Assembly (NCBI GenBank): GCA_003551675.1
Contig: PUNG01000152.1
Coordinates: 5,377-69,376 of the forward strand
Length of the DNA stretch: 64,000 bases
Source: Thermoplasmata archaeon
Lineage (GTDB): Archaea > Thermoplasmatota > Thermoplasmata > Halarchaeoplasmatales > Halarchaeoplasmataceae
Reading direction: 5' to 3'
In this document: positions 4,703-27,959 of the stretch, one piece after another
Numbering within the stretch: the first letter of the stretch is position 1
How the letters are laid out: every line of letters starts with the position of its first letter
Translations under genes and position numbers: made by a program
Notes under the pieces: model-generated
Told to the model about the DNA's origin: nothing
Databases searched by the model: none
Seen by the model: the letters and a program-made list of their open reading frames with translations, nothing else

Positions 4703-4739
4703 TACCCATTTTCTCCCCAAATCACCTATAGGTGGAAAT

Positions 4740-9122: not shown

Positions 9123-9176
9123 GATCTATCCGGAAACAACAAATTTCTTAAAATACATACAAGGTCGCGAAGAAAC

Positions 9177-9827: not shown

Positions 9828-9843
9828 AAAGTATCTGTGAAGA

Positions 9844-11252: not shown

Positions 11253-11286
11253 GTTTTCACCTCGAATAGAATCCCTGATCTCATAA

Positions 11287-11532
11287 TCATCCCATCATGA
11301 AATAATCTGGTAAATTATTCCACAGCCAAGTAAGCAGAAAACCGACTGAGCCTATGAGCAGCAGTCCTCCTACGACTATGAGCAGGGTTTTTTTGAACTC
11401 TTCTCGATCTGGCTTTCTAGCCATCTTGAGAATCCTACCGTATTTGCCTTTTCCTATCTTTCCTGCTTTTTCTTCGATTTTATCTTGTATATTCCAGGAC
11501 CCTTCAATAATGTCCATCTGTTTTCCCCTCAT
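11287..11532 (-). CDS. secE: Preprotein translocase subunit SecE (Sec61 gamma)
   Basis: 81 aa with the motif KPDREEFKKTLLIVVGGLLLIGSVGFLLTWL and a single C-terminal TM. The ftsZ-secE-spt5-rpl11 order is conserved in archaea. Confidence 0.75.
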   Translation of the reverse strand: MRGKQMDIIEGSWNIQDKIEEKAGKIGKGKYGRILKMARKPDREEFKKTLLIVVGGLLLIGSVGFLLTWLWNNLPDYFMMG

Positions 11533-12653: not shown

Positions 12654-12698
12654 TTGGAGTTAAATCATACTGTATAGTATCCCAATCATTAATCCCTT

Positions 12699-12706
12699 AT
12701 ATAAAA
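12699..12706 (-). promoter_or_regulatory. Putative TATA box for ftsZ
   Basis: On the minus strand TTTATATA lies about 46-53 bp upstream of the ftsZ ATG. Confidence 0.3.
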
Positions 12707-12753
12707 TGTTTTGCCCCTAAGCCCGGTAAAAACGATCATTCAACTTTTTCAGT

Positions 12754-13305
12754 TCATGCCGTCTTTTTCCAGGAGAATATATTGATCAAGAGATACAGTA
12801 TGAAAAATACCGCCGAAGAGAAGATAACCATGAGTATTATCTCTATATTGGCTCCTATGCCCATCTCTAAAGAACTGTATGCGCCTATCAATCCGGCGAA
12901 AACGGCCAAAAAAAATCCCATCACGACGTTACCAAACAAGTCATTCAAGGCGGATCTTTTAAAGTCCTGCACGTTCTTGTCCGAACTACTTTCAAAAACT
13001 TCATCTATACCGCTGACCAGCAGCGTGTTCCTAGCGTAGAACCAAACACCTACGAAGAGGAAAAAGAAACCTATTATCGATAACAGGTTGGCGGTTGTGA
13101 AAGAGATCACCCTGTTGACGAAAAGGTAAGATATTATCAGCAGAGGTATACCTGAATCCAGGAATAATAGCCTACGCACATTGTAACCTATCAAGGGGAC
13201 TATACAGAAGATCAAGGGAAAAAACCAGTATACCGAATGAAGGGATGTCAGACTCGCCAGTGCCGCCGACAAGATCATCAAGGCGGAAACAAAAACTCTA
13301 GTCAA
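12754..13305 (-). CDS. Polytopic membrane protein (module gene D, copy 1)
   Basis: 183 aa with about 5 TM helices. Paralogous to 21198..21725 (shared SLHS.YWF.P..F......YN......LD.GI....S..FVN and IGFFFLFVG.WFY.RN). Confidence 0.5.
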   Translation of the reverse strand: MTRVFVSALMILSAALASLTSLHSVYWFFPLIFCIVPLIGYNVRRLLFLDSGIPLLIISYLFVNRVISFTTANLLSIIGFFFLFVGVWFYARNTLLVSGIDEVFESSSDKNVQDFKRSALNDLFGNVVMGFFLAVFAGLIGAYSSLEMGIGANIEIILMVIFSSAVFFILYLLINIFSWKKTA

Positions 13306-14588
13306 GCTCGTCTTTTTCTCTGTCTGTATCTTAACACCTCCTCTAAAGCCGGTTCTAAAGGTTGGTTAGGATCCCAATCCACTACCACCGTTCCGTAGGT
13401 CCAAAGTTTTTCTATTATATTCTTCCTTTCCGCACGGTGTAATTTTTCCGCCGTAGATCCAAGGTCACCCACGATATTTTTTTCTATCTTTACAGGGTCT
13501 GGAGAGATCACCATAACGTCGTATTCTCTTCTGCAAAAGTCTACGATGGTGTCGCTGAACTCGGGTACCGTTAAGGGGGAAATAAAGATGATCATGCTCC
13601 TTCTTGGAAAAAAATCCTCTAATAGCCACTTAACACCTTCAAGGCCCCAAGTACCCCCTTTTTCAAATTTGGCCAAGTTGGATAAGATGCTTTGGTATTG
13701 ATTTTTGCCCGTACCCGGGTAGACCCAGTTAAGGTACTCGCCCGCCACTATGACCCCTACCTGATTCCGGGCGGAAAGTATGGCCGAGGACAAACTCGCT
13801 GCCGCGTCTACGGAGGATTCCAGTGTGTTATTTCTCATGGTCCCTACTATACCTTTTTTATATCCGTCCACCACCAAGATCACGTCCCCTGATTTTTCAG
13901 CTTCGTATTCGTTGGTGAAGGGCTTTTGATATCGTGCGGTAGCCTTCCAGTTTATATCTCTGATCTCGTCGCCTATATGGTATTCCCGCAGAGAAAAGAA
14001 TTCGTTACCTACACCTATGCTTTTTGATTTTATATCTCCAAGCCAGTGCTTGGTATAACTGGGATTTATATCTATTTTTTTCATCTCTTGAACCCGTGGA
14101 AGTATCCGTATCGATATATTTTCTTCTTCATCTAATTCTTCACTAAAAAAATTAAAGGTGTCCCTGTATCTTATCTTGGTGGGGCCCACTTCTATCTTTC
14201 CACTGACAGGGCATGAGATCTTGTAGTATAGATCTTTTTTTTCTCCCTTTTCAAGCCTCACGATTTGATGGTTAGATCCATCTACCACTTCAACAAGGGA
14301 GGGGAGTATGTCGTGTACCTCCAAAAAACGTAGTTCATCTCCTTTATTTTCTAGATGGATATTCAGTTCGATCTCGTCGCCCAAGTAAACGTCTCTTATC
14401 CCTCTACTGGTCTCTCTACGAACATCTACGCGAATATCGTCAGGCGGTAGCGATCTACCCACGATGACGAAGAGTGCTAGGGACGATATGGCCCCCATAA
14501 AGAAAACCCAACTTCTGAATAGATTTCCCAGGAGCACCGTTAAAATGGTGAGTGCCGTCAGATAGACCAGGAGTTTATCCATCTTCAT
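13302..14588 (-). CDS. DUF58-family (vWA-like) protein with N-terminal TM segments (module gene C, copy 1)
   Basis: DUF58-like core NEFFSLREYHIGDEIRDINWKATARYQKPFTNEYEAEKSGDVILVVDG. Two N-terminal TM helices are followed by a beta-rich domain. A 4-nt overlap with the downstream gene suggests an operon. Confidence 0.7.
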   Translation of the reverse strand: MKMDKLLVYLTALTILTVLLGNLFRSWVFFMGAISSLALFVIVGRSLPPDDIRVDVRRETSRGIRDVYLGDEIELNIHLENKGDELRFLEVHDILPSLVEVVDGSNHQIVRLEKGEKKDLYYKISCPVSGKIEVGPTKIRYRDTFNFFSEELDEEENISIRILPRVQEMKKIDINPSYTKHWLGDIKSKSIGVGNEFFSLREYHIGDEIRDINWKATARYQKPFTNEYEAEKSGDVILVVDGYKKGIVGTMRNNTLESSVDAAASLSSAILSARNQVGVIVAGEYLNWVYPGTGKNQYQSILSNLAKFEKGGTWGLEGVKWLLEDFFPRRSMIIFISPLTVPEFSDTIVDFCRREYDVMVISPDPVKIEKNIVGDLGSTAEKLHRAERKNIIEKLWTYGTVVVDWDPNQPLEPALEEVLRYRQRKRRA

Positions 14589-14634
14589 GTATTACACCCC
14601 TCAGCAGCCGAGAACGTAGACTTCGTATTTTGCA

Positions 14635-15258
14635 CTAGTTCCATTCTTCGATCCTCCGTATGATCTCCTTTACTTTTTTTTCGTAATCTTTTTTTGACTC
14701 TTCATCCTTGGACCCAGGTCGTAGAAATCTTTCAAGTCCCTTTTTTTGCTCTCTCCCATGATCGTTAGAGAGCATGAAATCCGAGATCATATCGTCTTGA
14801 ACCATGCTGCGGAACTCGTCTGGGTTTCTCAAAAGATATCGTACGTCTTTTTCAGATAGATCTTTTTTTTCTTTCAATTTCATGATGAATATTTTTCTAA
14901 CCTTTTCCAAGAACATTTTTTGACTTATCTTCTTTCCCTCAGAAGCTCTTTGAAGGAGGACCGACGTATCCTGCATCCTTAGGTTTATGGTCTCGTCGAG
15001 TTCCTTTTTTTCTTTCCAGAAATCGGGCTTTTCAGTGGAGCTCATGGTCAACTGGATCAAGTCAAATCCGATGACGATCAGTAAAAGGAATCCCAACGCC
15101 CTTCCTATGCTCTTCTGTATGCCGCTCCCTCCCTCTAATGTCAATACGAAAAAAGAGACGATCAACAGCAGTAGTAGGATGTAATAGACATTCGAACTTT
15201 TTTTCCGTAGGATCAGGTCTTTTTTGATCATCGACATGTTAAACGAGGTTTCAGACAT
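14635..15258 (-). CDS. Membrane protein with 2 TM and cytoplasmic helical K/E-rich domain (module gene B, copy 1)
   Basis: Paralogous to 23035..23577 and 26419..27087 (shared C-terminal DVRYLLRNPDEFRSMVQDDMISDF / EVNKLIRYPDKFRDVVKDDTLADF / DIKELLKNEDDLRKIVEDETLVDF). Confidence 0.5.
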   Translation of the reverse strand: MSETSFNMSMIKKDLILRKKSSNVYYILLLLLIVSFFVLTLEGGSGIQKSIGRALGFLLLIVIGFDLIQLTMSSTEKPDFWKEKKELDETINLRMQDTSVLLQRASEGKKISQKMFLEKVRKIFIMKLKEKKDLSEKDVRYLLRNPDEFRSMVQDDMISDFMLSNDHGREQKKGLERFLRPGSKDEESKKDYEKKVKEIIRRIEEWN

Positions 15259-15261
15259 GTT

Positions 15262-16239
15262 TCACTCCAAATCTTTTTTTAATTCCTTAAGATTTTTTAA
15301 GGTCCGGTTCTTTTCCTTCTCACCCAGCGGATGAGAACTGTACTTGGCCAGCTCGAACACTTCTCTTATGTTTACGATCTTTAAGGAGGGCACATCTAAT
15401 TTTTCAGTCGCTAACTCTTCAAATTCCCTAGGTGTCATGGAATCTTCGTTCTCCACGCCCTTCTCTTCCAGTATCAAGCACATCTGCTGGTAGCATCTTA
15501 TTATGGTGGATTTCACGTCTCTGCCTTGGTGCAGCTCCGTTATGGCACGGTCAACGGCAGAAGTTATGTCGTCCTCCAACTTGTCTTCGTCTTCTACCTG
15601 TTTAGAGGGTTTCAGCGGCTGGAATCTTTGATACATGAAAAAAACGATGGCTAACACGAAGATAAGGATGAATACGGCCACCCCGGGTCCCCCTATACTT
15701 TCAGTAGCCACTCCAGCTTCATCCCAGAGATATGAGACGGACTCCCCGTTCAAAGAAGGTAGACGGTCAAGGGGAAAGTAGCCGTAAAGTGCATCCGCCA
15801 ATACATCACTGAAAGCATAGACTATCAATCCGCCGATCCCAATGAAAAGGGATACTAGGATCGCCACCTTTTTTGAACTTATATGCCCTTGCAAAACCGC
15901 AAAGAGTAGAAGACCACTACCCAGTATGATAAGCCCGAAATATAAAGCACCCAAAGCCTCAAAGAAGATCGGAGTTATGACCCAAAACAGTGCAAAACTC
16001 AACAGCAATAAGAGCATACGTGATCTTCCTTTATAGAATACGACTGCCGCTATAAAGAAGGGCGCGATGATACCTATGACTGCAAGGTAAGAAAGGTTTA
16101 GAGGACTCCCTCCTATGTCGTACTGAAAATTCATCATATTCCCTATAAGCCATGCACCTAGAAGGAAGAGGATGAAGGTCGTCACTACCGTTGTTTTTTT
16201 GTCCAAACTTATTCCTCTCAGTCGAAACAAAATCAACAC
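15262..16239 (-). CDS. DUF4129-like membrane protein (module gene A, copy 1)
   Basis: About 8 TM helices. The C-terminal cytoplasmic domain (DRAITELHQGRDVKSTIIRCYQQM...TPREFEELA...FELAKYSSHPLGEKE) matches the recalled DUF4129 pattern (TPrE...yE.arYs). Confidence 0.6.
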   Translation of the reverse strand: MLILFRLRGISLDKKTTVVTTFILFLLGAWLIGNMMNFQYDIGGSPLNLSYLAVIGIIAPFFIAAVVFYKGRSRMLLLLLSFALFWVITPIFFEALGALYFGLIILGSGLLLFAVLQGHISSKKVAILVSLFIGIGGLIVYAFSDVLADALYGYFPLDRLPSLNGESVSYLWDEAGVATESIGGPGVAVFILIFVLAIVFFMYQRFQPLKPSKQVEDEDKLEDDITSAVDRAITELHQGRDVKSTIIRCYQQMCLILEEKGVENEDSMTPREFEELATEKLDVPSLKIVNIREVFELAKYSSHPLGEKEKNRTLKNLKELKKDLE

Positions 16240-16260
16240 TCCGTGGATTTTAATCTTTTG

Positions 16261-16277
16261 CTATAGCCTCGCTAGTG
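16261..16277. repeat. 17-bp exact direct repeat CTATAGCCTCGCTAGTG (copy 1; copy 2 at 19746..19762)
   Basis: The 17-mer is identical at 16261 and 19746 and brackets the large surface-protein gene. Confidence 0.5.
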
Positions 16278-16289
16278 TCGTATCCCTAC

Positions 16290-16492
16290 ACATAAAAGAG
16301 TCTGGTGAGCACGAGTTGAAAGCGGAAGGTGTGAGCCTCACTTTTACAGTCGAAGAAGTCACAACCGACAGCTGGTTGGTAGTTGCGTTGATCCTCTCGA
16401 TCATAGCTCTGCTCTTGTTCGTCTGGATGGGGATGCAAAGTGACGAGAAGACGGTTGATAAGCCCACCCTTAGGAAAAAAGAGAATGAGTGA
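16290..16492 (+). pseudogene. 3' fragment of a surface-protein paralogue (C-terminal TM-anchor coding remnant)
   Basis: Its translation LKAEGVSLTFTVEEVTTDSWLVVALILSIIALLLFVWMGMQSDEKTVD matches the C-terminus of the 16546..19575 product (AEGFTRIIDVEEVTTDGWLIAALILSIIALLVFVWMGMESDGKTVD). Nucleotide identity is high, and no upstream gene body is present. Confidence 0.55.
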
Positions 16493-16545
16493 TATAACTG
16501 GTGTTATCGTGCGGTAGAGTATTCATCTCCTTAAGTGATATATAG

Positions 16546-19500
16546 ATGTATATCTATATAGTCTATAAAAGAAGGATTTGTATGAGGGAAAAGAGATTGG
16601 TCTTCGTCGTAAGTTGCCTACTTATAACCGGCGGGATGGTAGTTGTTGTCGGGGGCGAGGCGATAGAAGGGAACGAAAGTGTTGGTGGAGTGACAGGGGA
16701 AAATGAACCGCAGGCTGTTCAAGAGATCCACGACTGGTACGATCTCGATGATGTGCGGGACGATCTAGACGGCGATTATATTCTGATGAACGATTTGGAT
16801 GAAAATACCGACGGTCATGACGAATACAACAACCAGAAAGAGAATTATAAAATCAGAGAAGATGCTGGATATGAAGAAGCTTGGGACGATGGCGATACGA
16901 TAGATATACCCTTTGATGAAGATGATTATGATTCAGTTTTATCAGTTGAAGATGAAGACGGAAACTCTATAGATCATACTGTAGACCATCCCACGATCAC
17001 AATAGATGAAGACACGGGGGAACGATATATTTATGTAAACTACGAAGATGCTGTTGTGGGCTGGGAGCCGATAGGTGATGATGATGACGGATTTTCAGGT
17101 ACTTTCGACGGAGATGATTATGAAATAAGGGACCTCTACACCGACCGATTAGGCACAGATAACGTTGGCCTGTTTGGGTATATCGATGAAGGTGGAGAAG
17201 TTCGCAACGTTGGTGCTGTCGATACGGATGTGAGGGGATTCATTGGTGTAGGCGGGCTCATAGGATTTATCTATGAAGGCACGATCGAAAACTCATACGT
17301 CACGGGTGATGTGAGTGGAGACTCGCATGTTGGTGGGCTCGTTGGATGGAACGCGGGGGAAGGCACGGTGGCGAACTCGTATGCTACGGGAGATGTGAGT
17401 GGAGAAGGTGGTATAGGTGGGCTCGTTGGAACGAACATAGGCACGGTGGCGAACTCGTATGCAACTGGAGACGTGAGAGGGGGAGGTGGTATAGGCGGGC
17501 TCGTTGGATCGAACTCTGGCCTGGTGGCGAACTCGTATGCTACTGGTGTGGTGAGCGGGGGAGACAGTGTAGGCGGGCTCGTTGGTGTGAACCATGATAC
17601 GGTGTCGAACTCGTATGCTACTGGTGTGGTGAGTGGGGGAGATGGTATAGGCGGGCTCGTTGGAATGAACATAGGCACGGTGTCAAACTCGTATGCTATA
17701 GGAGATGTGAGTGGAGACGAGCTTGTAGGCGGGCTCGCAGGACTTAACTATAAAGGCACGATCGAAAACTCGTATGCAACTGGAGGGGTGAGCGGAGATG
17801 AGGACATAGGTGGGCTCGTTGGATTGAAATTTGAAGGCAGCACGGTTGAGAACTCGTTCTGGGATATCGAAACATCAGGACAAGATGATTCCAACGGCGG
17901 TACAGGGAAGACCACCGTTGAGATGAAGGATGCTGTGACCTACACAGATACAAGTACTGAAGGATTGAACGAGCCGTGGGATTTCGTAGGCGATCCGAAC
18001 GACGACGAAGGTGATGAGGATATATGGGACATCGACGATAGTACTAACGACGGATATCCATTCTTGACTTGGTCAGCAAGGGAACTTGCGATAAACATCG
18101 AAGGCAAAGGTAATACCGAACCTTTGGAAGGTACTCACACCTATGTAAAAGGTACTGAGGTAACTGTTACAGCAACGCCTGATGAGGGCTGGTACTTTGA
18201 CGGTTGGACTGGCGATCACGAAAATGCCAACAGGGAGATAACGATAATCATAGATGACAATAAAATCCTGACGGCTAATTTTGATGAGATAAGAGAAGGA
18301 GAACAAGTTTTAACGATAAATGTTGATGGTGAAGGCACGACGGAGCCGAAGCCAGGAGATCACATCTATGACAAGGGTGAAGAAGTCACGATTAAAGGGA
18401 TTCCGGAAGAAGGCTGGTACTTTGTCGAATGGACCGGCGATCACGAAGGTACAGAAGACAAGCTCACTATAACTATGGACGAGGATAAAGAAGTAACAGC
18501 TCATTTTGCCATACACGAATACACCTTGACGGTGAACGTCGAAGGAGAAGGAACTACCGATCCTGAAGAAGGTATTCATAGTTATGAAAAAGGAGATATC
18601 GTGACGGTTGAAGCTACGCCCGCAGAGGACTGGATTTTTGTAGAGTGGATAGGAGACGAGGTAGGAACGGACACGACCATAGAGATAAATATGTACGAAA
18701 ACAAGAGTATAACGGCTGTCTTCGAAGAGATCCAAACATACGAGTTGACGGTAGATGTAGAGGGTGAAGGCACCGTAGAAGTTGAGCCTGAGCGGGAAGA
18801 GTACGAAGAGGGCACGGAAGTCATTTTAACAGCGGTACCTGACGAAGGTTGGTACTTCGAAGAGTGGACAGAAGACTATGAAAGTACTGAAGACGAACTC
18901 ACCATAATCATGGACAGTAACAAAGAAATCACGGCATGGTTCGAAGAGGAAGTAAAGTATCACGAGCTAGAGGTGAACATAGACGGTGAAGGCACCGTAG
19001 AAGTTGAGCCCGAGCAGGACGAGTACGAAGCGGGCACGGAAGTCACTTTAACAGCGGTACCTGCCGAAGGTTGGTACTTCAAAGAGTGGTCTGGTGACGA
19101 AACAAGTACAGAAGTGGAAATCACCGTCACCATGGACGAAGACAAAAACATCACCGCACATTTCGAGAAGTTAGCTCCTGCGGAATTCGAATTCTCTGCC
19201 CTAACAATAGAGCCGGGAGAACCGGAGGTGGGCGAAGAAATCAAGATAAACATAGAAGTGACCAACATGGGTGGGCTAGAAGGAGAATACACCGTAGAAT
19301 TTTACATGAACCATGCTCTCATCGACGAAGTAGATGTAGAGCTGGAGGCCGGTGAAACAAAAACGGTTTCAACGACCTACGAGATCGAAGAGGCTGGGGA
19401 TTATCACATAGAAGCGGAAGGTTTCACTCGGATTATCGATGTCGAAGAAGTCACCACCGACGGTTGGTTGATCGCCGCTTTGATCCTTTCGATCATCGCT

Positions 19501-19575
19501 CTACTCGTGTTCGTCTGGATGGGGATGGAGAGTGACGGGAAGACAGTTGATGCTCCCGAGGAGGACGAAGACTAA
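16546..19575 (+). CDS. Large cell-surface protein: signal peptide, GLUG-motif repeats, about 7 Listeria-Bacteroides-type repeats, CARDB-like domain, C-terminal TM anchor
   Basis: N-terminal signal/TM segment (LVFVVSCLLITGGMVVVVGG) and an acidic region. About 8 repeats of GGLVG.N.GTV.NSYATGDVSG are GLUG-like. About 7 repeats carry GWYF.EWTGD...ITA.F. A CARDB-like segment reads EPGEPEVGEEIKINIEVTNMGGLEGEYTVEFYMN. The C-terminal TM is WLIAALILSIIALLVFVWMG, followed by an acidic tail. Confidence 0.85.
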   Translation: MYIYIVYKRRICMREKRLVFVVSCLLITGGMVVVVGGEAIEGNESVGGVTGENEPQAVQEIHDWYDLDDVRDDLDGDYILMNDLDENTDGHDEYNNQKENYKIREDAGYEEAWDDGDTIDIPFDEDDYDSVLSVEDEDGNSIDHTVDHPTITIDEDTGERYIYVNYEDAVVGWEPIGDDDDGFSGTFDGDDYEIRDLYTDRLGTDNVGLFGYIDEGGEVRNVGAVDTDVRGFIGVGGLIGFIYEGTIENSYVTGDVSGDSHVGGLVGWNAGEGTVANSYATGDVSGEGGIGGLVGTNIGTVANSYATGDVRGGGGIGGLVGSNSGLVANSYATGVVSGGDSVGGLVGVNHDTVSNSYATGVVSGGDGIGGLVGMNIGTVSNSYAIGDVSGDELVGGLAGLNYKGTIENSYATGGVSGDEDIGGLVGLKFEGSTVENSFWDIETSGQDDSNGGTGKTTVEMKDAVTYTDTSTEGLNEPWDFVGDPNDDEGDEDIWDIDDSTNDGYPFLTWSARELAINIEGKGNTEPLEGTHTYVKGTEVTVTATPDEGWYFDGWTGDHENANREITIIIDDNKILTANFDEIREGEQVLTINVDGEGTTEPKPGDHIYDKGEEVTIKGIPEEGWYFVEWTGDHEGTEDKLTITMDEDKEVTAHFAIHEYTLTVNVEGEGTTDPEEGIHSYEKGDIVTVEATPAEDWIFVEWIGDEVGTDTTIEINMYENKSITAVFEEIQTYELTVDVEGEGTVEVEPEREEYEEGTEVILTAVPDEGWYFEEWTEDYESTEDELTIIMDSNKEITAWFEEEVKYHELEVNIDGEGTVEVEPEQDEYEAGTEVTLTAVPAEGWYFKEWSGDETSTEVEITVTMDEDKNITAHFEKLAPAEFEFSALTIEPGEPEVGEEIKINIEVTNMGGLEGEYTVEFYMNHALIDEVDVELEAGETKTVSTTYEIEEAGDYHIEAEGFTRIIDVEEVTTDGWLIAALILSIIALLVFVWMGMESDGKTVDAPEEDED
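17290..17830 (+). repeat. ~60-bp tandem nucleotide repeats (about 8 units) encoding GLUG motifs
   Basis: Recurring units such as ggtataggcgggctcgttgga...ggcacggtggcgaactcgtatgctactggag...gtgagtgg occur with high inter-unit identity. Confidence 0.7.
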
Positions 19576-19745
19576 CTGCAGATCCTCACCAACAAAGTCG
19601 ACCTCAGTTTTTCCTTCGTATCGAATTCGTGCCCTTTGATGATGAGCACGTTCCGATTTTCCAACGATCTATCCGTTCAGATGAAAACGTCTACACCTCA
19701 TTTCGATCCAAAAACGAAAAGCAGATCCCGGAAAAATTAGAAAAA

Positions 19746-19762
19746 CTATAGCCTCGCTAGTG
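19746..19762. repeat. 17-bp direct repeat CTATAGCCTCGCTAGTG (copy 2)
   Basis: Exact match to 16261..16277, located 170 bp downstream of the surface-protein stop codon. Confidence 0.5.
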
Positions 19763-19790
19763 AAAGATTAATGTACTACCAAAAACAGTT

Positions 19791-20537
19791 ATGATCGAGG
19801 TATGGAATATGAGGAGTTTCACCAGGACAAAAGTCCTGATCGTTTTGGGGCTTATCTTGTTCAGTCCGGTACTTCCCTGGTATTATGGGGGAGAACAACA
19901 TGGCGAGCAGCTTTCTAGGGTCCCGGACTCTGAAAGCGTCAACTTGAACCCCGGTGATGATATGTTCACTTACCATTTTAGGGCCGAAGCCGAGGACGAA
20001 ATACATATCAGAGTATCCTCCGACAGACAGCCGTCTTTCCAAGTGGTCCTCATACCCGTAGAACACCTGGACGAATATAGACAAGATCCATCCTTTACAG
20101 ATATAGAGAAGATCGAAGAGGCGTCCAACAAACAAACCAGATCGTTCAGGGCACATCTATCCGTACCTGAAGAGGGCGAATACGTTCTGGTCGTTCGTTC
20201 CTTGGACTCCAGGAGTGCGGTTTACAACGTTTTGATCGGAAGAGGTCTTTTTTCATCGATGGTGGTACGATCAGGAGGATTTGTGGAGTTTTTCGGTATC
20301 CTCTTTATGGGTGTCGGTGCTGTATCCGCTAGCATCTATCTTTACATGAGGTTGAAAGAAAAAAAGAAAGACTCACTGAAGAACGGAATTTCCTTGGATA
20401 TGAGTTTATCGCAGATCGATGAGGAAGACAAGGAGAGATACAAAACGGAGGAAAAAAGACCGGATATAGGCTCTTCCACCCATACCGTCGAGGACGACTC
20501 TTCACCCGAAGAAGACTACCTTAGATATGATGATTGA
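19791..20537 (+). CDS. Secreted/membrane-anchored protein of unknown function (signal peptide, C-terminal TM, acidic tail)
   Basis: N-terminal hydrophobic segment VLIVLGLILFSPVL, a central soluble domain, a C-terminal TM FGILFMGVGAVSASIYLYM and a D/E-rich tail. Confidence 0.45.
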   Translation: MIEVWNMRSFTRTKVLIVLGLILFSPVLPWYYGGEQHGEQLSRVPDSESVNLNPGDDMFTYHFRAEAEDEIHIRVSSDRQPSFQVVLIPVEHLDEYRQDPSFTDIEKIEEASNKQTRSFRAHLSVPEEGEYVLVVRSLDSRSAVYNVLIGRGLFSSMVVRSGGFVEFFGILFMGVGAVSASIYLYMRLKEKKKDSLKNGISLDMSLSQIDEEDKERYKTEEKRPDIGSSTHTVEDDSSPEEDYLRYDD

Positions 20538-20605
20538 ATACAAGTCCGACCGAAGAGTTAAAAGTAGTAACGATTATTTATTTTCTGAGATGATAGGAGA
20601 CAGTC

Positions 20606-21205
20606 ATGAGTAAAACAGGAAAGTACCGTTCTCTAGATCTCGATGATAGCAACTCGAGGACAAAGGCCAATCCCTTCTTGAGAGTGATCGCTTTTTTTAT
20701 AGACGTGGTGATGATCAGGCTCGTTGTGGAGTTTGTAGCGTTTTCTCTGGCCCGGGCAGAATTGATCTCTGAAAGATGGATGGACGTAGTCGGAGGATAC
20801 CTAAGAGAAGGTCTAGCTCCATTACGAGGGGGTGCCATGAGTAGGGAAGAGATACTCATCATAACATCCACCGAGGACCTAACGGTACATATCCTCTACA
20901 GTGCTTTGTTTTTGATGTATTTTATTTTACTGGAGTCCAGGTACGGCTGGGGTCAGACAATCGGGAAGAAGATCTTGAGCATGGAAGTTTTAGACCGACA
21001 CAGCAAAAAGATATCCTTGAAGGAATCATCTTTACGGAACATCCCCAAGTACGTACTCCGCATACCGGTAGTGGGAGTTTTTTTTGGCTTGTTCGAGTTG
21101 TTTCTGATGTTCTATTACCTCAAACGAACAGGCGATATCTTGGCGAACACCGACGTGGTTTCACAGTATGGAAAAGGCTTGCTAGGACGGATCTTCTCTA
21201 GATAG
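20606..21205 (+). CDS. RDD-family membrane protein (tentative)
   Basis: The N-terminus ANPFLRVIAFFIDVVMIRLV resembles the RDD-domain start. There are 3-4 TM helices. Confidence 0.45.
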   Translation: MSKTGKYRSLDLDDSNSRTKANPFLRVIAFFIDVVMIRLVVEFVAFSLARAELISERWMDVVGGYLREGLAPLRGGAMSREEILIITSTEDLTVHILYSALFLMYFILLESRYGWGQTIGKKILSMEVLDRHSKKISLKESSLRNIPKYVLRIPVVGVFFGLFELFLMFYYLKRTGDILANTDVVSQYGKGLLGRIFSR

Positions 21206-21725
21206 AACTCTCTATAGAAAGAGCTCTTATGATAAAGTAGACTATAAAGAAAATTCCTGAGGAAAAGGCCACCATGAGTAGTATCTCGACCATGGGGCTC
21301 ACATCTATCCCAAGAGGACTGTACATACCTACCAGCGATGCAACTATCGCAAGAAAAGCCGCAATAAAAAGTCTGCCCGATATATCAATCGAAACGGCTC
21401 TTTTGAAAGAGACTAAACTATCTACCTCACCTATCTCCGAGACCAAGTTGTCCTCGATACCACTGATATATATCAAGTTTCTAACGTAGAACCAGATGCC
21501 AACGAATAAGAAGAAAAAACCTATGACCGATGATAAGTTGAGAAGGTTTGGATACAATCCGTGGTTGACAAAAAATAAGGAGAGTATGGAGGATAGGATC
21601 CCGATATCCAAAAGAAAGATGCTCTTCAGGTTGTAAGCTAGTATAACGAAGCAGCCGAATAAGATGGGTAAGAACCAGTAATGGGAATGTAAAGAAAAAA
21701 CACTGGCTAGGATAGCCACTGCCAA
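21198..21725 (-). CDS. Polytopic membrane protein (module gene D, copy 2)
   Basis: Paralogue of 12754..13305. Confidence 0.5.
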   Translation of the reverse strand: MAVAILASVFSLHSHYWFLPILFGCFVILAYNLKSIFLLDIGILSSILSLFFVNHGLYPNLLNLSSVIGFFFLFVGIWFYVRNLIYISGIEDNLVSEIGEVDSLVSFKRAVSIDISGRLFIAAFLAIVASLVGMYSPLGIDVSPMVEILLMVAFSSGIFFIVYFIIRALSIESSI

Positions 21726-21751
21726 GACCAGCAGCGAAACAAAGATATCTC

Positions 21752-23077
21752 TTATCTTCGCTTGTATCTTAACACCTCCTCCAAAGTCGGTTCTAGAGGC
21801 TCTCTAGGGTCCCAGTCCACCACGATGGCTCCGTGGGTCCAGAGCTTGTCTAACAGATGCTGCCTTTCCGCGTGGTGCAGCTTTTCGGCCAGACCTTCAT
21901 AATTATCCGTGAGATCCATCTCGATCTTGAGGGGGTCTGGAGAGATGACCATCACGTCGTATTCTCTCATACAAAGATCGATCATGGTCTCGCTGAATTT
22001 TGAAACCGTCAACGGAGAGATAAAGATAATCATGCTCTTTCTCGGAAAAAGATCCTCTAGGATCCATTTTACTCCCTCCATCCCCCAGCCGCCGCCCTCC
22101 TCGAATTTCGTAAGGTTCGCGATTATACGATGATAGTGATTTTTACCGGTACTAGGGTACAGCCAATTAAGATAACTGCCCGAAACTATCAATCCCACAC
22201 GGTGTCTAGATGAAAGAAGAACTGAGGCTAGACTTGCGGTTGCATCTATGGACGCCTTCATGGTATTATGTTCCATGGTTCCTATCATACCTTCTTGGTA
22301 GCCATCTACAACCAATATCACGTCTCCGCTTTTTTCGCCTTCGTATGCGTTGGTCTTGGGGTCCAAGTATCTAGCCGTGGCCTTCCAATTGATGTCTTTT
22401 AAGCCGTCTCCCGGATGGTATTCGCGGAGAGCAAAAAATTCACTACCGAAGCCTATGTTTTTAGACTTAGTATCTCCTAACCAGTGCTTGGTGTAGCTTG
22501 GAGCAATGCTCACTTTCTCCATATCTTCGGTTTTAGGTAATACTTGAAGATCTATCTTTTTTCTTGGCTCCAATACCCTGGAAAAAAGACAAAGACCGTC
22601 TCTGTATCTCAACTTTATGGGCCCCACTTCAAAATTTCCTGTGACTGGACATTTTATCTTATAATCGAACTCGAAGACATCATTTGCTTTTATCGTACAG
22701 ATGTGGTGGTTGGTTCCCTCCGAAACTTCGATCCGCGGTGGAAGAACATCATGCACCTCCAAAAAGCGTATCTCGTCTCCCTTGTTTTTGATCTTTATCT
22801 TCAGTCGGAGTTCGCCTTCAACGTGAACTTCCCTCGCTTCATGCCGGGAACCCCTTTCCACTTCGATATGAAGGTTTTTAGGAGGTAGTGACCCCACGGC
22901 CACGACTAAAATTGCTACTGAACAGATGGTGCCTATGAAAAAGATCCAACTACCTAAAAGATTGCCGAATATGATCCCCGCAACCGCCAAGAGCACTATG
23001 TAAAGGAACGGCCTCCCTTTTTTCGTCTCTCCATCTACCCCCATCTGTCGATCCTCTCCATGATCTCTGATAACCAT
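21752..23077 (-). CDS. DUF58-family (vWA-like) protein (module gene C, copy 2)
   Basis: SEFFALREYHPGDGLKDINWKATARYLDPKTNAYEGEKSGDVILVVDG; about 60% identical to copy 1. Confidence 0.7.
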   Translation of the reverse strand: MVIRDHGEDRQMGVDGETKKGRPFLYIVLLAVAGIIFGNLLGSWIFFIGTICSVAILVVAVGSLPPKNLHIEVERGSRHEAREVHVEGELRLKIKIKNKGDEIRFLEVHDVLPPRIEVSEGTNHHICTIKANDVFEFDYKIKCPVTGNFEVGPIKLRYRDGLCLFSRVLEPRKKIDLQVLPKTEDMEKVSIAPSYTKHWLGDTKSKNIGFGSEFFALREYHPGDGLKDINWKATARYLDPKTNAYEGEKSGDVILVVDGYQEGMIGTMEHNTMKASIDATASLASVLLSSRHRVGLIVSGSYLNWLYPSTGKNHYHRIIANLTKFEEGGGWGMEGVKWILEDLFPRKSMIIFISPLTVSKFSETMIDLCMREYDVMVISPDPLKIEMDLTDNYEGLAEKLHHAERQHLLDKLWTHGAIVVDWDPREPLEPTLEEVLRYKRR

Positions 23078-23577
23078 TCTTCGTATTCCTCGTCTTCCCT
23101 AACATCCTCTTCTGCATCGTCCTCGTCGGCTAGTACGAAATCAGCCAGGGTGTCGTCCTTCACCACGTCTCTAAATTTATCAGGGTACCGGATAAGTTTA
23201 TTCACTTCGTCTCTGGATAGATTTCTTTCAACTTGCAGTTTGCTTAAAAAAATATCTTTTATCTTTCTTTCTAAAAGACCGCGGCTGACCCGCATCCCTT
23301 TAGACGCTCTTTTGACCAGGTTGGAAGTGTTCCCCAATCTAATATCTATCTCCTCTTTCAGAACTTCTTCGTGTTTCCAGATATCCTCGTCTTCCGTAAT
23401 TTCTCTCGCCCAGAGAACCAGGTTCATCCCCATGAGGAACAATATGAACATGGCTGAGAAATATCGTAGTAGTCCTTCCGAACCGACGGTAAAAACGGTT
23501 AAAACTAGGATGAAAAAACCGCTCAAGATATAGTATGATCTGTTCTTTTTATGGCCGAGACTATTCACGGCGTTCAT
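23035..23577 (-). CDS. Module gene B, copy 2 (2-TM plus cytoplasmic helical domain)
   Basis: Paralogue of 14635..15258. Confidence 0.5.
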   Translation of the reverse strand: MNAVNSLGHKKNRSYYILSGFFILVLTVFTVGSEGLLRYFSAMFILFLMGMNLVLWAREITEDEDIWKHEEVLKEEIDIRLGNTSNLVKRASKGMRVSRGLLERKIKDIFLSKLQVERNLSRDEVNKLIRYPDKFRDVVKDDTLADFVLADEDDAEEDVREDEEYEEWLSEIMERIDRWG

Positions 23578-24512
23578 CCCAATTCCTCCTGTATATCCTT
23601 CAGAGTCCTTACAGCTCGATCCCTTTCTTTTTCACCGAGTTCATGCTGGCTGTACTTTGCGATCTCGAACAATTTCCTGATCTCTGTTATTTTAGAGGCG
23701 GATACGTGTATGTTGTTGATAGCTCTTTTTTCGAACTCTCTAGGTGTGGTGAACTCAGTATCTTTCAAACCTTTCTTTTCAAGTATATTACACATCCTTT
23801 GATAGCATCTCAATATGGTGGATTTTACATCTTTTCCTTTGTGAAGCTCTTTGATGGCTTCATCTACAGTAGATGATATATCGTATTCTATATCTTTTTC
23901 AGATCCCTCCTCCTCGGATTTACGGAGTAAAGGTATCACTCTCTGCACCAATAAGAAGAGCAGTACCGCCGCGATCAAAAGTACGAGTATGAACGTGCCC
24001 ATACTACCGAATGCATGTTCTACCATGGCTCTAGAGTTATCCCAGGGGAGTGAAAGTCCCTCTCCGTTCCCCTCTGTTTGGATCGGGATCAGATCTCCTC
24101 CTGTTCCGAAATAGGTGACGATCAAAAGTAAAAGGCCTCCCAAAGCTATCACAACAAAATAGGCCGACATCCCTTTCTGTCCCAGCCCCTTCCAATACAT
24201 CAGAGCCAAAAGGAATATGGTGATGATTATCACCGAAGGCCAAAGTATCCCGTATCTCAGAAAAAGATAAGGTGCGAGTCCCATGGCCACAAGGCTACCT
24301 GAGACCATCAAAATAGTGGGAGACTTACTCTTCAAAACTATAAAGAGCGGCACGATCAATAACGGTAAATAGATCCACAACCAGGATATGGTGAAATCGA
24401 AGGTCTGTGTGTCCTCATCTAGTGTGGGTGATAAAGACATCACATTACCTATGCTCCAGGAAGCAAAAAGAAAGAGGATCAAGATCAATCCGGTCAATGT
24501 TTTTCTATCCAT
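23574..24512 (-). CDS. DUF4129-like membrane protein (module gene A, copy 2)
   Basis: C-terminal DEAIKELHKGKDVKSTILRCYQRM...TPREFEKRA...FEIAKYSQHELGEKE is paralogous to 15262..16239. Confidence 0.6.
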   Translation of the reverse strand: MDRKTLTGLILILFLFASWSIGNVMSLSPTLDEDTQTFDFTISWLWIYLPLLIVPLFIVLKSKSPTILMVSGSLVAMGLAPYLFLRYGILWPSVIIITIFLLALMYWKGLGQKGMSAYFVVIALGGLLLLIVTYFGTGGDLIPIQTEGNGEGLSLPWDNSRAMVEHAFGSMGTFILVLLIAAVLLFLLVQRVIPLLRKSEEEGSEKDIEYDISSTVDEAIKELHKGKDVKSTILRCYQRMCNILEKKGLKDTEFTTPREFEKRAINNIHVSASKITEIRKLFEIAKYSQHELGEKERDRAVRTLKDIQEELG

Positions 24513-24584
24513 GTGACGTGACCGATATCATATGATGATCCCTTGAACTTTAATCTTTCCCCACTGATCATTTCAAACCCATGT

Positions 24585-25247
24585 TCAACCGATCTTCTTA
24601 CGTGCGAAGTACTTCGGTAAGAAAACTACGACTCCGTATACCGCTGTGAAAACTACTGCACCGAACAGGAGTATGATAAATGTGGCAAGATCAGGGGAAA
24701 AAGGTCCCACGAAACTATAGATGGCTACGACTCCTCCCAACGAAGCTACGACGAATCCCCAAAACAAAGACCACAGGTGATAATGTGCGGAATGTCTTTT
24801 GTATTCCTGAAGAAGATCCGTCTCTCCGTCTCCCTGCATATCTTTTTCTATCTCTCCGATCAACGATGCTCTTCTCATGAATGACCATGCACCAAAATAT
24901 AGGATGAACATGGTCAAAATAAAGATGAGATTAGCAGGGTTTAGTGAGATATAACGGACGAAGTAGAAAAAGGACGAAGCCGAAGCGAGGATACTCACAT
25001 CCACTGCAATTTTTATTTCCCGGTAGAATCCGATGATACCTACAGAACCACTTACCAGAGGAAACCACCATCCAGAAGTATCGTAAGATACCGCGGAGGC
25101 TAATAGACAGATGGTGAAGACGAACACGCCTAGTAAGATCTTATCAATTTTCAGCCTCCACTCATCTTCCAATATCTTATCACCTCCTCTAAAGACGCCT
25201 CTAAAGGTTCGTTGGGATCCCAGTCCACTACCACGCTGTATTTCCAC
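24585..25247 (-). CDS. Polytopic membrane protein (module gene D-like, copy 3, more divergent)
   Basis: 220 aa with about 5-6 TM helices, in the same position and orientation as gene D in copies 1 and 2. Similarity is weak. Confidence 0.4.
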   Translation of the reverse strand: MEIQRGSGLGSQRTFRGVFRGGDKILEDEWRLKIDKILLGVFVFTICLLASAVSYDTSGWWFPLVSGSVGIIGFYREIKIAVDVSILASASSFFYFVRYISLNPANLIFILTMFILYFGAWSFMRRASLIGEIEKDMQGDGETDLLQEYKRHSAHYHLWSLFWGFVVASLGGVVAIYSFVGPFSPDLATFIILLFGAVVFTAVYGVVVFLPKYFARKKIG

Positions 25248-26422
25248 AGCTTTTCTAGGATGATATCTCTTTCAAGCCGTGTGAGCTCTTCAGCTAACAA
25301 GTTATGTTCTTTCATGATCTCTTTCTGGATCACCAACGGGTTAGGCGATATCACCATGATATTATATTCCCTCATGCAGATATCGATTATCGTTTCGCTC
25401 ACCTTTTTGGAGAGCAGAGGGGATATGAATATGATCATACTCCTGTTAGGGAAAAACCGCCTCAAAAGCCACCTCGCATCTTTTAGTTTCCAATGACCTC
25501 CTTTTTCCACCTCGCTCAGATGCTCCATTATCTTATAAAATTGATCTCTCCCCGTCTCCGGATAGAGCCAATTCAGATAGTCGCCTAAGATGATCAGACC
25601 TACTCTGTTCCTGTCCGCGAGTATAGACGAGGCAAGGGAGCCGGCGGCTTGAATGGTCGCATCGAGAGTATTGATATCCGAGTTGCCTATGTTTCCCAAC
25701 CTATGTCCATCTACTACGATGATCACATCTCCTGATTTTTCACCGACGAATTCGTTGGTCATGGGTTCAAGAAATCTTGCACTAGCTTTCCAATTTATCT
25801 TTCTTATTTCATCGTCCACCATGTACTCTCTAAGGGAAAAAAATTCCGTACCTATCCCCATATGCTGTGACCCTATATTTCCCATCCACTTCTTCGTGTA
25901 TAAGGGTCTTACATTTACACTCTCCATGTCCTGTACTTTTGGCAGGACGAAGAGTTTCATCAATTTGTTGCTGGTCCATTCCTCAACATAGTAGTTAAGA
26001 GGATCTCTGTATCTGATCTCGATAGGACCTACTTTGATATCCCCTCTTTTAGGACATTTTATCTTGTAGCGGATGGTTTTCTCTTCTTTTTCATCCAATC
26101 TCAAAACCTGGTGATTTGATCCTTTTATAACCTTCACGTTAGAAGGAAGTGAATCGTATATCTCGATATAGTTCAGTGCAGAGCCATGATTCTTGACTGA
26201 CAGTTCGACCCATACATGGTCTCCTTCGTACAAACTCATCTTTTCAGATTTTCTTTCGGCTTTCAATTTGACGTCGCCTTTTAAAGCACCTCTGTTTCCA
26301 ACGGCCAGCATGGAAAAATTAGCGATGGCTAAGATGAGAAAAACCCAACTATCTAGGATCATACCGATGATAAGCGATAGGATGGTGACGGCGATCAGGC
26401 TGAAACTAGTGATCGATCTCAT
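25151..26422 (-). CDS. DUF58-family (vWA-like) protein (module gene C, copy 3)
   Basis: TEFFSLREYMVDDEIRKINWKASARFLEPMTNEFVGEKSGDVIIVVDG. Confidence 0.7.
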   Translation of the reverse strand: MRSITSFSLIAVTILSLIIGMILDSWVFLILAIANFSMLAVGNRGALKGDVKLKAERKSEKMSLYEGDHVWVELSVKNHGSALNYIEIYDSLPSNVKVIKGSNHQVLRLDEKEEKTIRYKIKCPKRGDIKVGPIEIRYRDPLNYYVEEWTSNKLMKLFVLPKVQDMESVNVRPLYTKKWMGNIGSQHMGIGTEFFSLREYMVDDEIRKINWKASARFLEPMTNEFVGEKSGDVIIVVDGHRLGNIGNSDINTLDATIQAAGSLASSILADRNRVGLIILGDYLNWLYPETGRDQFYKIMEHLSEVEKGGHWKLKDARWLLRRFFPNRSMIIFISPLLSKKVSETIIDICMREYNIMVISPNPLVIQKEIMKEHNLLAEELTRLERDIILEKLWKYSVVVDWDPNEPLEASLEEVIRYWKMSGG

Positions 26423-27087
26423 ACTTCATCCCCCCTCCATCCCGAGACCTTCTCCATCACGTCTTTCATCTTTTTTTCATAGGCGCTGTCCTTCTTCTTA
26501 TTCACATCCTCAGAGCGAGATAACAGATGGAAACCGTTTACTCTTTCGTCCTCTTTTCCAACGATATCTTCGATTTTTTTACTGTTAAGCAAAAAGTCTA
26601 CTAGAGTTTCGTCTTCGACTATCTTTCTCAAATCATCCTCATTTTTCAAAAGTTCTTTTATATCCCCCTCCGACATGTCTTTTTTTTCCTTGATCTTCTC
26701 CACCAAATCCCTTTTCAACCGTTTCTCTATCAAGGTTTGGCTCAGTTCCAACCCTTTCAGTGCCCTATCCATCCTACCAGACATCCTCTCCAACGGCAAA
26801 TTTTGGACTTTATCCTCACCTTGGGGTCTTCTCCATGTTGAGATGATGTTGACGTCTTTCGAGGCGGTAAATATTATATGTGATCCTATCCAACTCAGCA
26901 GGAGCATCGTGACGAACCGTTGTAAGTATCCCCCTGAAAACAGGAGTATTATCATCAAAGCCACACCTACGAAAAGAAATAAGAGAGGAGGCCCCATAAT
27001 ATCTCTTCTCTCCAGACCTGTTTTTTGCACCCATTCCGGTTTTAGATGCAGCCTTTCGACTGTGATTTCTCCTCCAGCATCCGTCAT
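26419..27087 (-). CDS. Module gene B, copy 3
   Basis: Paralogue of 14635..15258 and 23035..23577. Confidence 0.5.
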   Translation of the reverse strand: MTDAGGEITVERLHLKPEWVQKTGLERRDIMGPPLLFLFVGVALMIILLFSGGYLQRFVTMLLLSWIGSHIIFTASKDVNIISTWRRPQGEDKVQNLPLERMSGRMDRALKGLELSQTLIEKRLKRDLVEKIKEKKDMSEGDIKELLKNEDDLRKIVEDETLVDFLLNSKKIEDIVGKEDERVNGFHLLSRSEDVNKKKDSAYEKKMKDVMEKVSGWRGDEV

Positions 27088-27923
27088 AAGGATCCTCTCC
27101 TGAGTTCCTTTAGTTGCTGTAGAACTTTGCTTCTATGTGATTCATCCAGATCATGAGGACTGTATCTAGCTTCTTCAAACAGGTACGTTATATCCGAGAC
27201 CAGCTTTTCGGCCTTCGGCATCTTCTCTATAGTGTATTTTTTGAATTCCCTAGGAGTCATAGAATGATGGTTTTTAGCGCCTTTTTCTTCCAACAGCATG
27301 CTCATCTCTCTGTAGCAATTTATTATGGTAGTGCGGATTTCGCCGCCTCTATCTAGATCCGTGATAGCTTTGTCTAAAGTCGAATAGAAAGAGTCTTCGA
27401 TATCTTCCCTTTTTTTTAGCTCCTTCTTGGGTAAGCTGATATCTGTCTTTTCTCTCTCATCTTTACCGCCGGGGATATTCAGATATATATAATAGGTGAA
27501 CAGGGCTCCCAAGAGTAAAAGCAGCAGAACAAAGCCTATATCTAGAAGAAAGATCAGGGAGGGTACCTCGACTCCTAAAAAATATTCCAATCTCACCTGC
27601 ATCGCTAAAGGCCAAACTGCCAATACAACGAACAAAAGACCACCTATGGATGCAAAGATCCAAAATCCTAACAATAATAGTTCACTCACCATCATCCTAT
27701 CGTTACTTTCGGAACGAAGATATACGATGGATAAGTAAAGTATAGGCGTGGTTAAAAGCAAGATCATGCCGACTATAAATACCTCTTCAGGTACGCCAAG
27801 AAAAACGGGTTCGGAGTCCTGATCGACACTCATATCCATCAGATTGCCGATGAACCATGAAGATATAAGGACCACGAAGACGGACCATATCAATATCTTT
27901 TCACTTTTTAAATCCATGCGCAA
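27084..27923 (-). CDS. DUF4129-like membrane protein (module gene A, copy 3)
   Basis: C-terminal DKAITDLDRGGEIRTTIINCYREM...TPREFKKYT...FEEARYSPHDLDESH. Confidence 0.6.
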   Translation of the reverse strand: MRMDLKSEKILIWSVFVVLISSWFIGNLMDMSVDQDSEPVFLGVPEEVFIVGMILLLTTPILYLSIVYLRSESNDRMMVSELLLLGFWIFASIGGLLFVVLAVWPLAMQVRLEYFLGVEVPSLIFLLDIGFVLLLLLLGALFTYYIYLNIPGGKDEREKTDISLPKKELKKREDIEDSFYSTLDKAITDLDRGGEIRTTIINCYREMSMLLEEKGAKNHHSMTPREFKKYTIEKMPKAEKLVSDITYLFEEARYSPHDLDESHRSKVLQQLKELRRGSL

Positions 27924-27959
27924 TATTATAAATTTGAGATAGGGCTATTATACTTTTCC

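Follow-up and report, generated by a model that had tools for sequence, protein, structure and literature searches.

Three membrane modules of a soda-lake Thermoplasmata lineage as ATPase-less relatives of a MoxR operon, and a candidate MoxR encoded in trans

Loci that combine a MoxR ATPase with DUF58 and DUF4129 proteins are widespread in bacteria and archaea, and the roles of DUF58 and DUF4129 are unknown (PMC12067865). A 64,000-nucleotide (nt) stretch of a Thermoplasmata archaeon (contig PUNG01000152.1; hereafter the window) contains three copies of a four-gene module encoding a DUF4129 protein (A), a small protein with two transmembrane (TM) segments (B), a DUF58 protein (C) and a further membrane protein (D). 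Does such a system operate without a MoxR partner, as an initial annotation of the window had proposed, or is the ATPase encoded elsewhere? Comparison with related loci favours the second answer. The three modules are best read as ATPase-less, amplified derivatives of a MoxR (MRP-type) AAA+ operon that share one MoxR encoded in trans, an interpretation to which we assign a probability of about 0.55.

The three A-B-C-D sets were recovered from a listing of open reading frames (ORFs) at the positions first annotated, all on the minus strand and in identical order. The 12 genes are listed by module (aa, amino acids):

15262-16239, minus strand: A1, polytopic membrane protein with C-terminal DUF4129 (module 1, ftsZ-proximal; Pfam DUF4129 E 4.2e-7, residues 249-308)
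14635-15258, minus strand: B1, two-TM hairpin followed by an all-helical K/E-rich domain; weakly DUF7269-like, otherwise an unnamed family
13302-14588, minus strand: C1, DUF58 protein with an N-terminal TM hairpin and a vWA-like domain without DxSxS (Pfam E 1.9e-18; ftsZ-proximal orthogroup)
12754-13305, minus strand: D1, small six-helix membrane protein
23574-24512, minus strand: A2, DUF4129 membrane protein (module 2, RDD-adjacent; Pfam E 5.2e-10)
23035-23577, minus strand: B2, B-family protein (32% identity to B1, E 1e-31)
21752-23077, minus strand: C2, DUF58 protein (Pfam E 3.8e-15; RDD-adjacent orthogroup); the ATG at 23044 is a possible true start
21198-21725, minus strand: D2, D-family membrane protein (43% identity to D1, E 7e-43)
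27084-27923, minus strand: A3, DUF4129 membrane protein (module 3, alaS-proximal; Pfam E 5.2e-9)
26419-27087, minus strand: B3, B-family protein (30% identity to B1, E 2e-22)
25151-26422, minus strand: C3, DUF58 protein (Pfam E 1.2e-16; AlaRS-proximal orthogroup)
24585-25172 (longest ORF from GTG 25247), minus strand: D3, D-family membrane protein (26% identity to D1, E 5e-15)

D3 more likely starts at TTG 25172 than at GTG 25247, with a Shine-Dalgarno-like GGAGGTGA situated 8 nt upstream. Modules 2 and 3 adjoin with a spacer of 72 nt and are tandem as described, but module 1 lies ~5 kb away, separated by four plus-strand ORFs (i.e. a 106-aa ORF, a 1009-aa surface protein, a 248-aa membrane protein and an RDD protein). 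The 4-nt start/stop overlaps ascribed to all copies were likewise found at only four of the nine intra-module junctions (C1/D1, A2/B2, A3/B3 and B3/C3), the other five having gaps of 3-46 nt or longer overlaps. In the remainder of the window, Pfam detected only housekeeping genes.

The domains predicted by the initial annotation were recovered in all three copies by searches with Pfam hidden Markov models (HMMs). DUF4129 (PF13559) was detected at the C-terminus of A1, A2 and A3 (E 4e-7 to 5e-10) and DUF58 (PF01882) in C1, C2 and C3 (E 4e-15 to 2e-18), with every match above the gathering score. The motifs reported as conserved proved to be so: the DUF58 motif EFFSLREY..D....INWKATAR was invariant in the C alignment and the DUF4129 core TPREF / FE.A.YS was invariant among 30 A proteins. 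All 12 module proteins were predicted by hydropathy to be membrane proteins. A1 has ~6 hydrophobic segments followed by a charged tail of 123 aa, and Pfam found no Transglut_core or other extracytoplasmic domain in A1-A3, which consist of the polytopic TM region and DUF4129 only. No Pfam family was matched above threshold by B or D, in line with the earlier description of B as lacking a recognized family.

The A proteins also carry an SWxxGNxM motif at the end of the first TM helix (A1 residues 28-36), in which G33 is nearly invariant in 30 sequences; this is the sole strongly conserved feature of A outside the DUF4129 tail.

As first noted, none of the three copies contains an AAA+ gene, and the same is true of the whole 64 kb window. 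The P-loop of MoxR reads PGLAKT and falls outside the Walker-A pattern G....GK[ST]; hence MoxR was sought with an HMM and tblastn. The HMM, built from related loci, had no match among the window ORFs of at least 60 aa, and tblastn with the MoxR of the metagenome-assembled genome (MAG) described below gave a best E of 2.6 against the window. A single window P-loop ORF fits the classical Walker A; it encodes a 607-aa PIN + T2SSE-type ATPase + KH protein (41369-43192, minus strand) and is unrelated to the modules.

When genomes were scanned with the C alignment, 467 relatives were retrieved, and the best 80 of these were all from halo(alkali)philic Thermoplasmata MAGs, including Natronoplasma, Saliniplasma, Halarchaeoplasma and Haladaptatiplasma. 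ORFs were called in the relatives' loci and labelled by HMMs from the window A, B, C and D proteins, showing that the A>B>C>D order is near-universal. In 15 related genome loci (L034, L037-L043, L045, L076 and L078-L082), the order is A-B-MoxR-C-D, the gene between B and C encoding 316-318 aa with AAA_3 (E ~1e-63) and AAA_lid_2 domains. In the C tree, these 15 loci include the basal branches as well as the sister clade formed by Saliniplasma. MoxR is the standard operon partner in these relatives, a result near to the one that the initial annotation had set out as counting against it, but MoxR is not located immediately outside the window. A metagenome scan with MoxR added ~60 loci with A-B-MoxR-C or A-DUF4350-MoxR-C; the former order was found in soil and other metagenome contigs and the latter in ~50 marine contigs, where it is followed by a membrane protein of 281-298 aa. 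Marine A proteins are giant, with >1500 aa, Ig-like repeats and a C-terminal DUF4129. Comparative gene order shows the ancestral operon to have been A(DUF4129)-B-MoxR-C(DUF58)-D and, on this comparison, the window modules are a stripped, ATPase-less version of a known system. Intermediate states were observed in L015, where MoxR is located between an RDD gene and a 248-aa-type gene that adjoin each other in the window, and in L065, where MoxR is two genes upstream of a module; in both loci, MoxR is still beside modules though separately transcribed.

Three of the retrieved loci have unusual features. In L034, two tandem A-B-MoxR-C-D operons encode 100% identical MoxR proteins (4515-5471 and 9026-9982) with C proteins from different sub-branches of the tree, which suggests gene conversion, recent MoxR replacement or an assembly artefact. 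L075 (11966-18900) contains a second MoxR (335 aa, 55% identity to the orphan MoxR described below) with DUF4129-like and DUF58-like genes of its own (MoxR<328<A<239<C<), beside a regular A-B-C-D module. In the marine contig MDTE01150991.1 (L126, 1-4662), an A protein of >1550 aa with Ig-like repeats (Big_3_5, CarboxypepD_reg, MG2 and MG4) and a C-terminal DUF4129 precedes DUF4350-MoxR-DUF58; this is a giant and presumably surface-exposed form of the system in marine Thermoplasmatota.

A candidate ATPase was found in the same genome bin. The exact C1 protein is also present in soda-lake sediment contigs (JGI 3300000477 and 3300000557) and in MAG GCA_003553425.1, which carries the window modules on contig PWEF01000082.1 and an intact 316-aa MoxR (P0162) on contig PWEF01000020.1. 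This gene and the 15 MoxR-containing operons of relatives argue against the proposal of a system without a MoxR partner. The JGI sample with the window's contig also yielded a 100% identical MoxR fragment (L114). MAG PWHU is split in the same way, with three modules at one locus (L011) and an orphan MoxR at another (L085). The orphan MoxR P0162 shares 82% identity with the MoxR encoded in-operon in Saliniplasma, and retains intact Walker A (PGLAKT), Walker B (LLADEVNR) and sensor (ATQNP) motifs. Homologues of the L015 MoxR share 89-96% identity across many soda-lake assemblies, and 26 soda-lake metagenome/MAG loci encode a MoxR 88-100% identical to P0162 (some of these being the same contig from two look-ups). 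No module gene, whether for DUF58, DUF4129 or another component, and no vWA gene was found beside the orphan MoxR in any of these 26 loci, MAG PWHU being among them; the neighbourhood of P0162 contains GyrI-like, CoA-transferase and ThiI genes.

In the 24 loci that extend upstream, the orphan MoxR is divergent from a GyrI-like/Cass2 gene (173-210 aa). This pairing with a small-molecule-binding family was seen in L083-L107, L109, L110 and L114 (e.g. L090, 3702-4223 / 4355-5305), and the GyrI-like/Cass2 gene could be a regulatory partner of the orphan MoxR.

The age of the three copies was examined by comparing them with each other and with relatives. Every copy-to-copy BLASTP comparison gave E <=1e-13, indicating that the repetition of modules represents true homology. 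Identities were 45-57% for C, 26-38% for A, 24-32% for B and 26-43% for D, such that the ~50-60% initially estimated for all proteins holds for C only. A neighbour-joining tree of 92 C proteins placed C1, C2 and C3 in three separate orthogroups. Positional orthologues for each of these are present in three other MAGs (L007, L011 and L015), indicating that the triplication is old, as had been supposed. C3 clustered with alaS-proximal copies, C2 with RDD-adjacent copies and C1 with ftsZ-proximal copies having a 248-aa-type gene upstream; the best orthologue of A1 in L011 and L015 was also in the ftsZ-proximal module. L007, L011 and L015 retain the same three-module layout. The four proteins of a module find their best matches together in one module of the relative, showing that each module diverges as a unit.

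The modules are found at a fixed site, with divergent alaS on one side and ftsZ-secE-nusG-rpl11 on the other (window 27924-30788 / 10347-12753), a layout common in halophilic Thermoplasmata. Against the initial interpretation, the module is a common, vertically inherited operon at this site and is single-copy there in several lineages. On the contigs recovered, the MAGs of relatives typically encode at least 4-5 modules each.

Comparison of the window with L007, L011 and L015 gave identities of 90-92% for MoxR, 86-87% for FtsZ and 79-81% for NusG, and of 64-73% for C, 54-58% for A, 38-55% for D and 40-46% for B. Conservation of the orphan MoxR thus exceeds that of FtsZ, and its presumed partners (A, B, C and D) are fast-evolving. 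This pattern fits that expected of a hub with several diverging partners.

The predicted orientation of the module proteins is consistent with an intracellular partner. N-terminal tails are K/R-rich (5 K/R in 22 aa of B1, 5 in 23 aa of C2 and 4 in 17 aa of A1) and the TM-hairpin loops of B and C, with 2-5 aa, are K/R-free, which argues that the large domains of B and C are cytoplasmic. A K/R-rich stretch follows the last TM segment of A, ahead of the DUF4129 tail, and argues for a cytoplasmic tail. The DUF58, B and DUF4129 domains would face the cytoplasm, i.e. the compartment of MoxR. Such an orientation would be compatible with a cytoplasmic AAA+ partner and a poor fit to an extracellular assembly role.

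A mechanism can be proposed in which each module forms a membrane complex with its large domains toward the cytoplasm. C would be a membrane-anchored vWA-like adaptor and A a polytopic protein whose cytoplasmic DUF4129 tail serves as a docking or client domain, with B (two TM segments and a helical domain, in the operon slot occupied elsewhere by DUF4350) and D (six helices) as membrane partners. The ATPase gene would have departed from the operon in this lineage, leaving one highly conserved, separately encoded MoxR to act in trans on all of the paralogous modules as a hub with spokes. MoxR would spend ATP to remodel or assemble the A/B/C/D complexes. A broader version of this model, which we put at somewhat under even odds, is that the detached MoxR is a shared motor for at least 3-5 fast-diverging ATPase-less modules in a soda-lake clade of Thermoplasmata, with the modules as interchangeable specificity cassettes. 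To our knowledge, a one-MoxR-many-adaptors arrangement is undescribed for MoxR. By analogy with bacterial MoxR-DUF58 loci, a guess at the cellular output would be membrane or stress homeostasis.

Of the competing explanations, the one that survives best is that the modules became ATPase-independent after loss of MoxR, forming self-sufficient complexes (e.g. a scaffold or a channel-like A + D) while the orphan MoxR serves other clients. We consider this unlikely. It would account for the lack of co-transcription of MoxR with any module and for the unrelated genes around it, but the absence of any DUF58, vWA or DUF4129 gene from the same 26 loci leaves the modules as the only evident partners, and in L015 and L065 MoxR has remained beside modules. 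A degenerate metal ion-dependent adhesion site (MIDAS) also appears to favour independence. Sequence alignment showed that the MIDAS position reads DGYKKG, DGYQEG and DGHRLG in the window C proteins (VVDGYKKG in C1; consensus DG[YH]xxG) and DAxxx[ST] in basal C members, and that a canonical DCSPS is present only in L014_348, an unrelated DUF58 paralogue. DxSxS is absent throughout the C subfamily, however, and the site is just as degenerate in modules with an in-operon MoxR. Rapid evolution of A, B and D could similarly mean relaxed or new constraints. The 90-92% conservation of MoxR in lineages without an in-operon copy speaks against independence.

The initial annotation had viewed the modules as an envelope-remodelling or surface-complex assembly system tied to a giant surface protein and lacking an AAA+ partner, a reading that we now regard as improbable. 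All 12 proteins are membrane-bound and a 1009-aa surface protein with GLUG, InlB-B-repeat and CARDB matches in Pfam is encoded between copies 1 and 2. Homologues of this protein are located near modules in L016, L025, L026, L059 and L060, and the marine A protein of L126 carries >1400 aa of presumably extracellular Ig-like repeats. However, the syntenic loci L007, L011 and L015 lack the surface gene, indicating a lineage-specific insertion, and in the window it is flanked by an apparent relic of another surface-protein tail, which also points to local insertion. Surface-protein genes are moreover abundant (24 matches in the examined loci) and their enrichment near modules was not demonstrated. 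The window A proteins have short loops only on the outside, A, B and C are predicted to have their large domains in the cytoplasm, and an AAA+ partner is present in the same MAG. A role in surface assembly is thus unsupported by the window and its relatives.

It appears very improbable that the modules form a diversifying MoxR-vWA conflict or defence system, with fast-evolving modules as variable sensors or effectors. The multiple copies and the quick divergence of A, B and D are as this explanation would have it, and conflict roles are described for MoxR-vWA systems (PMC7159879). D1 had a weak PADLOC match to a '2TM effector' (E 1.2e-3), but no PADLOC match for A, B, C, D, the RDD protein, MoxR or the 248-aa protein was better than E 3e-4 and none for A, B, C, D, RDD or MoxR was significant. 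Pfam detected no beta-propeller, effector nuclease or peptidase in the loci, and the fixed core-genome alaS-ftsZ site with vertical inheritance is unlike a variable defence island. That the modules are decaying, non-functional remnants of MoxR operons is hardly credible: the ATPase gene is gone from every copy and inter-copy identity of A, B and D is low, but all 12 ORFs are intact with conserved motifs, intact positional orthologues in the same triple layout exist in three other MAGs (C identity of 64-73%), and translational-coupling overlaps are retained at several junctions.

Several points weigh against the model of a shared MoxR acting in trans. Contact of MoxR with the modules is proposed from the genome bin, operon history and conservation. 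The MoxR contig and the window are joined in one organism by MAG binning, a shared sample and composition; the tetranucleotide correlation of the MoxR contig (GC 0.434) with the window was 0.959, compared to 0.96 for a within-window control between its two ends, but close relatives fit the window profile equally well and composition shows consistency only. MoxR and module counts are those of the retrieved contigs rather than of a whole genome, and the tree of C proteins is without bootstrap support. Topology was derived from a crude hydropathy script and the positive-inside rule rather than a dedicated predictor. The absence of DxSxS makes a canonical metal-mediated vWA contact unlikely. Finally, searches with B and D found no informative structural or sequence relatives, and the roles given to them are guesses.

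The B family is narrow, with 130 representatives in 1.84 billion proteins in a full HMMER profile search; a word-indexed protein search with B1 gave a self-match only, the relatives being recovered by the HMMER profile. Sub-threshold matches to Pfam DUF7269 were observed in 15 of 61 B members (best score of 24.9 bits versus a gathering score of 29.1; none for B1) and cover profile positions ~4-119, corresponding to the TM hairpin and first helices of B. A relationship of B to DUF4129/A was rejected (hhalign probability of 11%), and homology of B to DUF4350 was not supported (0.2% over the full length, 4% over the C-terminal 150 aa). B and DUF4350 nevertheless share a similar operon slot and a C-terminal Trp despite this null result. 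D was compared to the 281-317-aa membrane protein downstream of C in MoxR metagenome loci (mostly marine), with no detectable homology at hhalign probabilities of <=14%. No SpoIIM/DUF95 match at E<=1 was found among 25 members of the D family that were scanned, and a match of D1 to the cell-division protein DrpB was far under threshold (16.6 versus 50 bits). Searches of PDB sequences with the C and A profiles gave nothing meaningful, and no significant NCBIfam match was obtained with A, B, C, D, the 248-aa protein or the RDD protein.

Two of the plus-strand genes between modules 1 and 2 recur beside modules in relatives:

20606-21205, plus strand: RDD-family membrane protein (PF06271, E 5.4e-16), convergent with D2
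19791-20537, plus strand: 248-aa protein with a predicted type-I membrane topology; conserved next to module-1 orthologues, upstream and divergent; without a match in Pfam, NCBIfam or PADLOC

An RDD gene is at most one ORF downstream of every complete module-2 orthologue and directly follows D in 11 of 13, while modules 1 and 3 are without one; the RDD protein is a possible accessory component. Homologues of the 248-aa protein are encoded upstream of A in L007, L008, L011, L015, L019 and L026, and whether this protein is part of the system is uncertain. The 106-aa ORF (16172-16492, plus strand) recurs in independent assemblies (L001-L003 and L006); at its 5' end it runs into A1, which is encoded on the other strand. 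Its end, '...LILSIIALLLFVWMGMQSDEKTVD...', closely resembles the C-terminal membrane anchor of the 1009-aa protein, '...IIALLVFVWMGMESDGKTVD', and the ORF appears to be what remains of the tail of a further surface-protein gene.

A AAAGATTAAA(A/G) element is common to the upstream regions of A1 and A2 (16240-16265 and 24520-24560, minus strand) and a similar AAAGTATAAT is located upstream of A3. These elements may be archaeal TATA boxes, implying one transcription unit per module. ftsZ has a TATA-like element of its own (TTTATATAA) in the 100-nt spacer after D1. One of the syntenic loci, L007 (JBKHKA010000013.1), is filed as 'Candidatus Aenigmatarchaeota archaeon' and yet is syntenic with Thermoplasmata loci, with proteins named Candidatus Natronoplasma sp. 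elsewhere; the label is probably a taxonomic error.

This lineage provides a natural dissection of the system, with the ATPase genetically apart from its presumed partners, A cut to a TM core and DUF4129, and several old paralogues per genome. If the shared-motor model is true, conserved patches on DUF58, DUF4129 and B should reveal MoxR contacts against a fast-diverging background, and the adaptor logic of other MoxR-type ATPases would extend to one-to-many. An ATPase-free operon would then be a poor criterion for calling a DUF58/DUF4129 locus MoxR-independent. A literature search found nothing on these modules in Natronoplasma or Halarchaeoplasmatales, and comparison was made with three better-known types of locus.

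A neighbouring DUF58 gene is the defining feature of MRP-type MoxR ATPases, and the recognized partners of MoxR are vWA-type proteins (PMC12067865). In the classification of Snider & Houry 2006, as given in the same source, MRP operons combine MoxR and DUF58, with or without vWA/TPR proteins, and examples are the mycobacterial moxR1-DUF58-vWA and Bacteroides bat loci (PMC12067865). The window modules resemble MRP operons in having a DUF58 core, which in related Thermoplasmata has an AAA_3 MoxR gene directly upstream, and in that the remaining partners are all membrane proteins. Unlike MRP operons, those of the window have no MoxR inside or nearby, the sole one detected in the MAG being on another contig; BatA/BatB-type vWA proteins, TPR proteins and DxSxS are also absent from the window, and the operon is present as three old paralogous copies.

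A co-regulated DUF4350-MoxR-DUF58-SpoIIM-RDD cluster has been described in actinobacteria (Rv3689-Rv3695 of M. tuberculosis and BB28_RS01875-01900 of M. chelonae; PMC8191103). The window shares with this cluster DUF58, small polytopic membrane proteins and an adjacent RDD gene. A DUF4129-DUF4350-MoxR-DUF58 layout, which is the one known in bacteria, is present in the marine Thermoplasmatota contigs (L124-L173), and this marine archaeal version opens with a DUF4129 protein; Rv3690, between Rv3689 and Rv3691, is one that we take to be a DUF4129 protein. The gene order matches that of the marine version at every position but the one separating A from MoxR. In contrast to the actinobacterial cluster, B (180-220 aa, two TM segments and a helical domain) occupies the slot of a ~435-aa DUF4350 protein with no homology by hhalign, D is not detectably SpoIIM-like, MoxR is outside the cluster and the cluster is triplicated.

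Pseudomonas TgpA belongs to an operon of the MoxR-DUF58-transglutaminase(DUF4129) type. The Bifidobacterium PFNA cluster is of this same type (PMC8430577, PMC6803598). The window A proteins differ from these in lacking a transglutaminase core or other extracytoplasmic domain, while a soil/sediment relative (L117) has a weak Transglut_core match (E 5e-4) and Ig-like repeats upstream of DUF4129. As in the TgpA and PFNA loci, the window modules contain a membrane protein that ends in DUF4129 and is partnered with DUF58 and, ancestrally, with MoxR.

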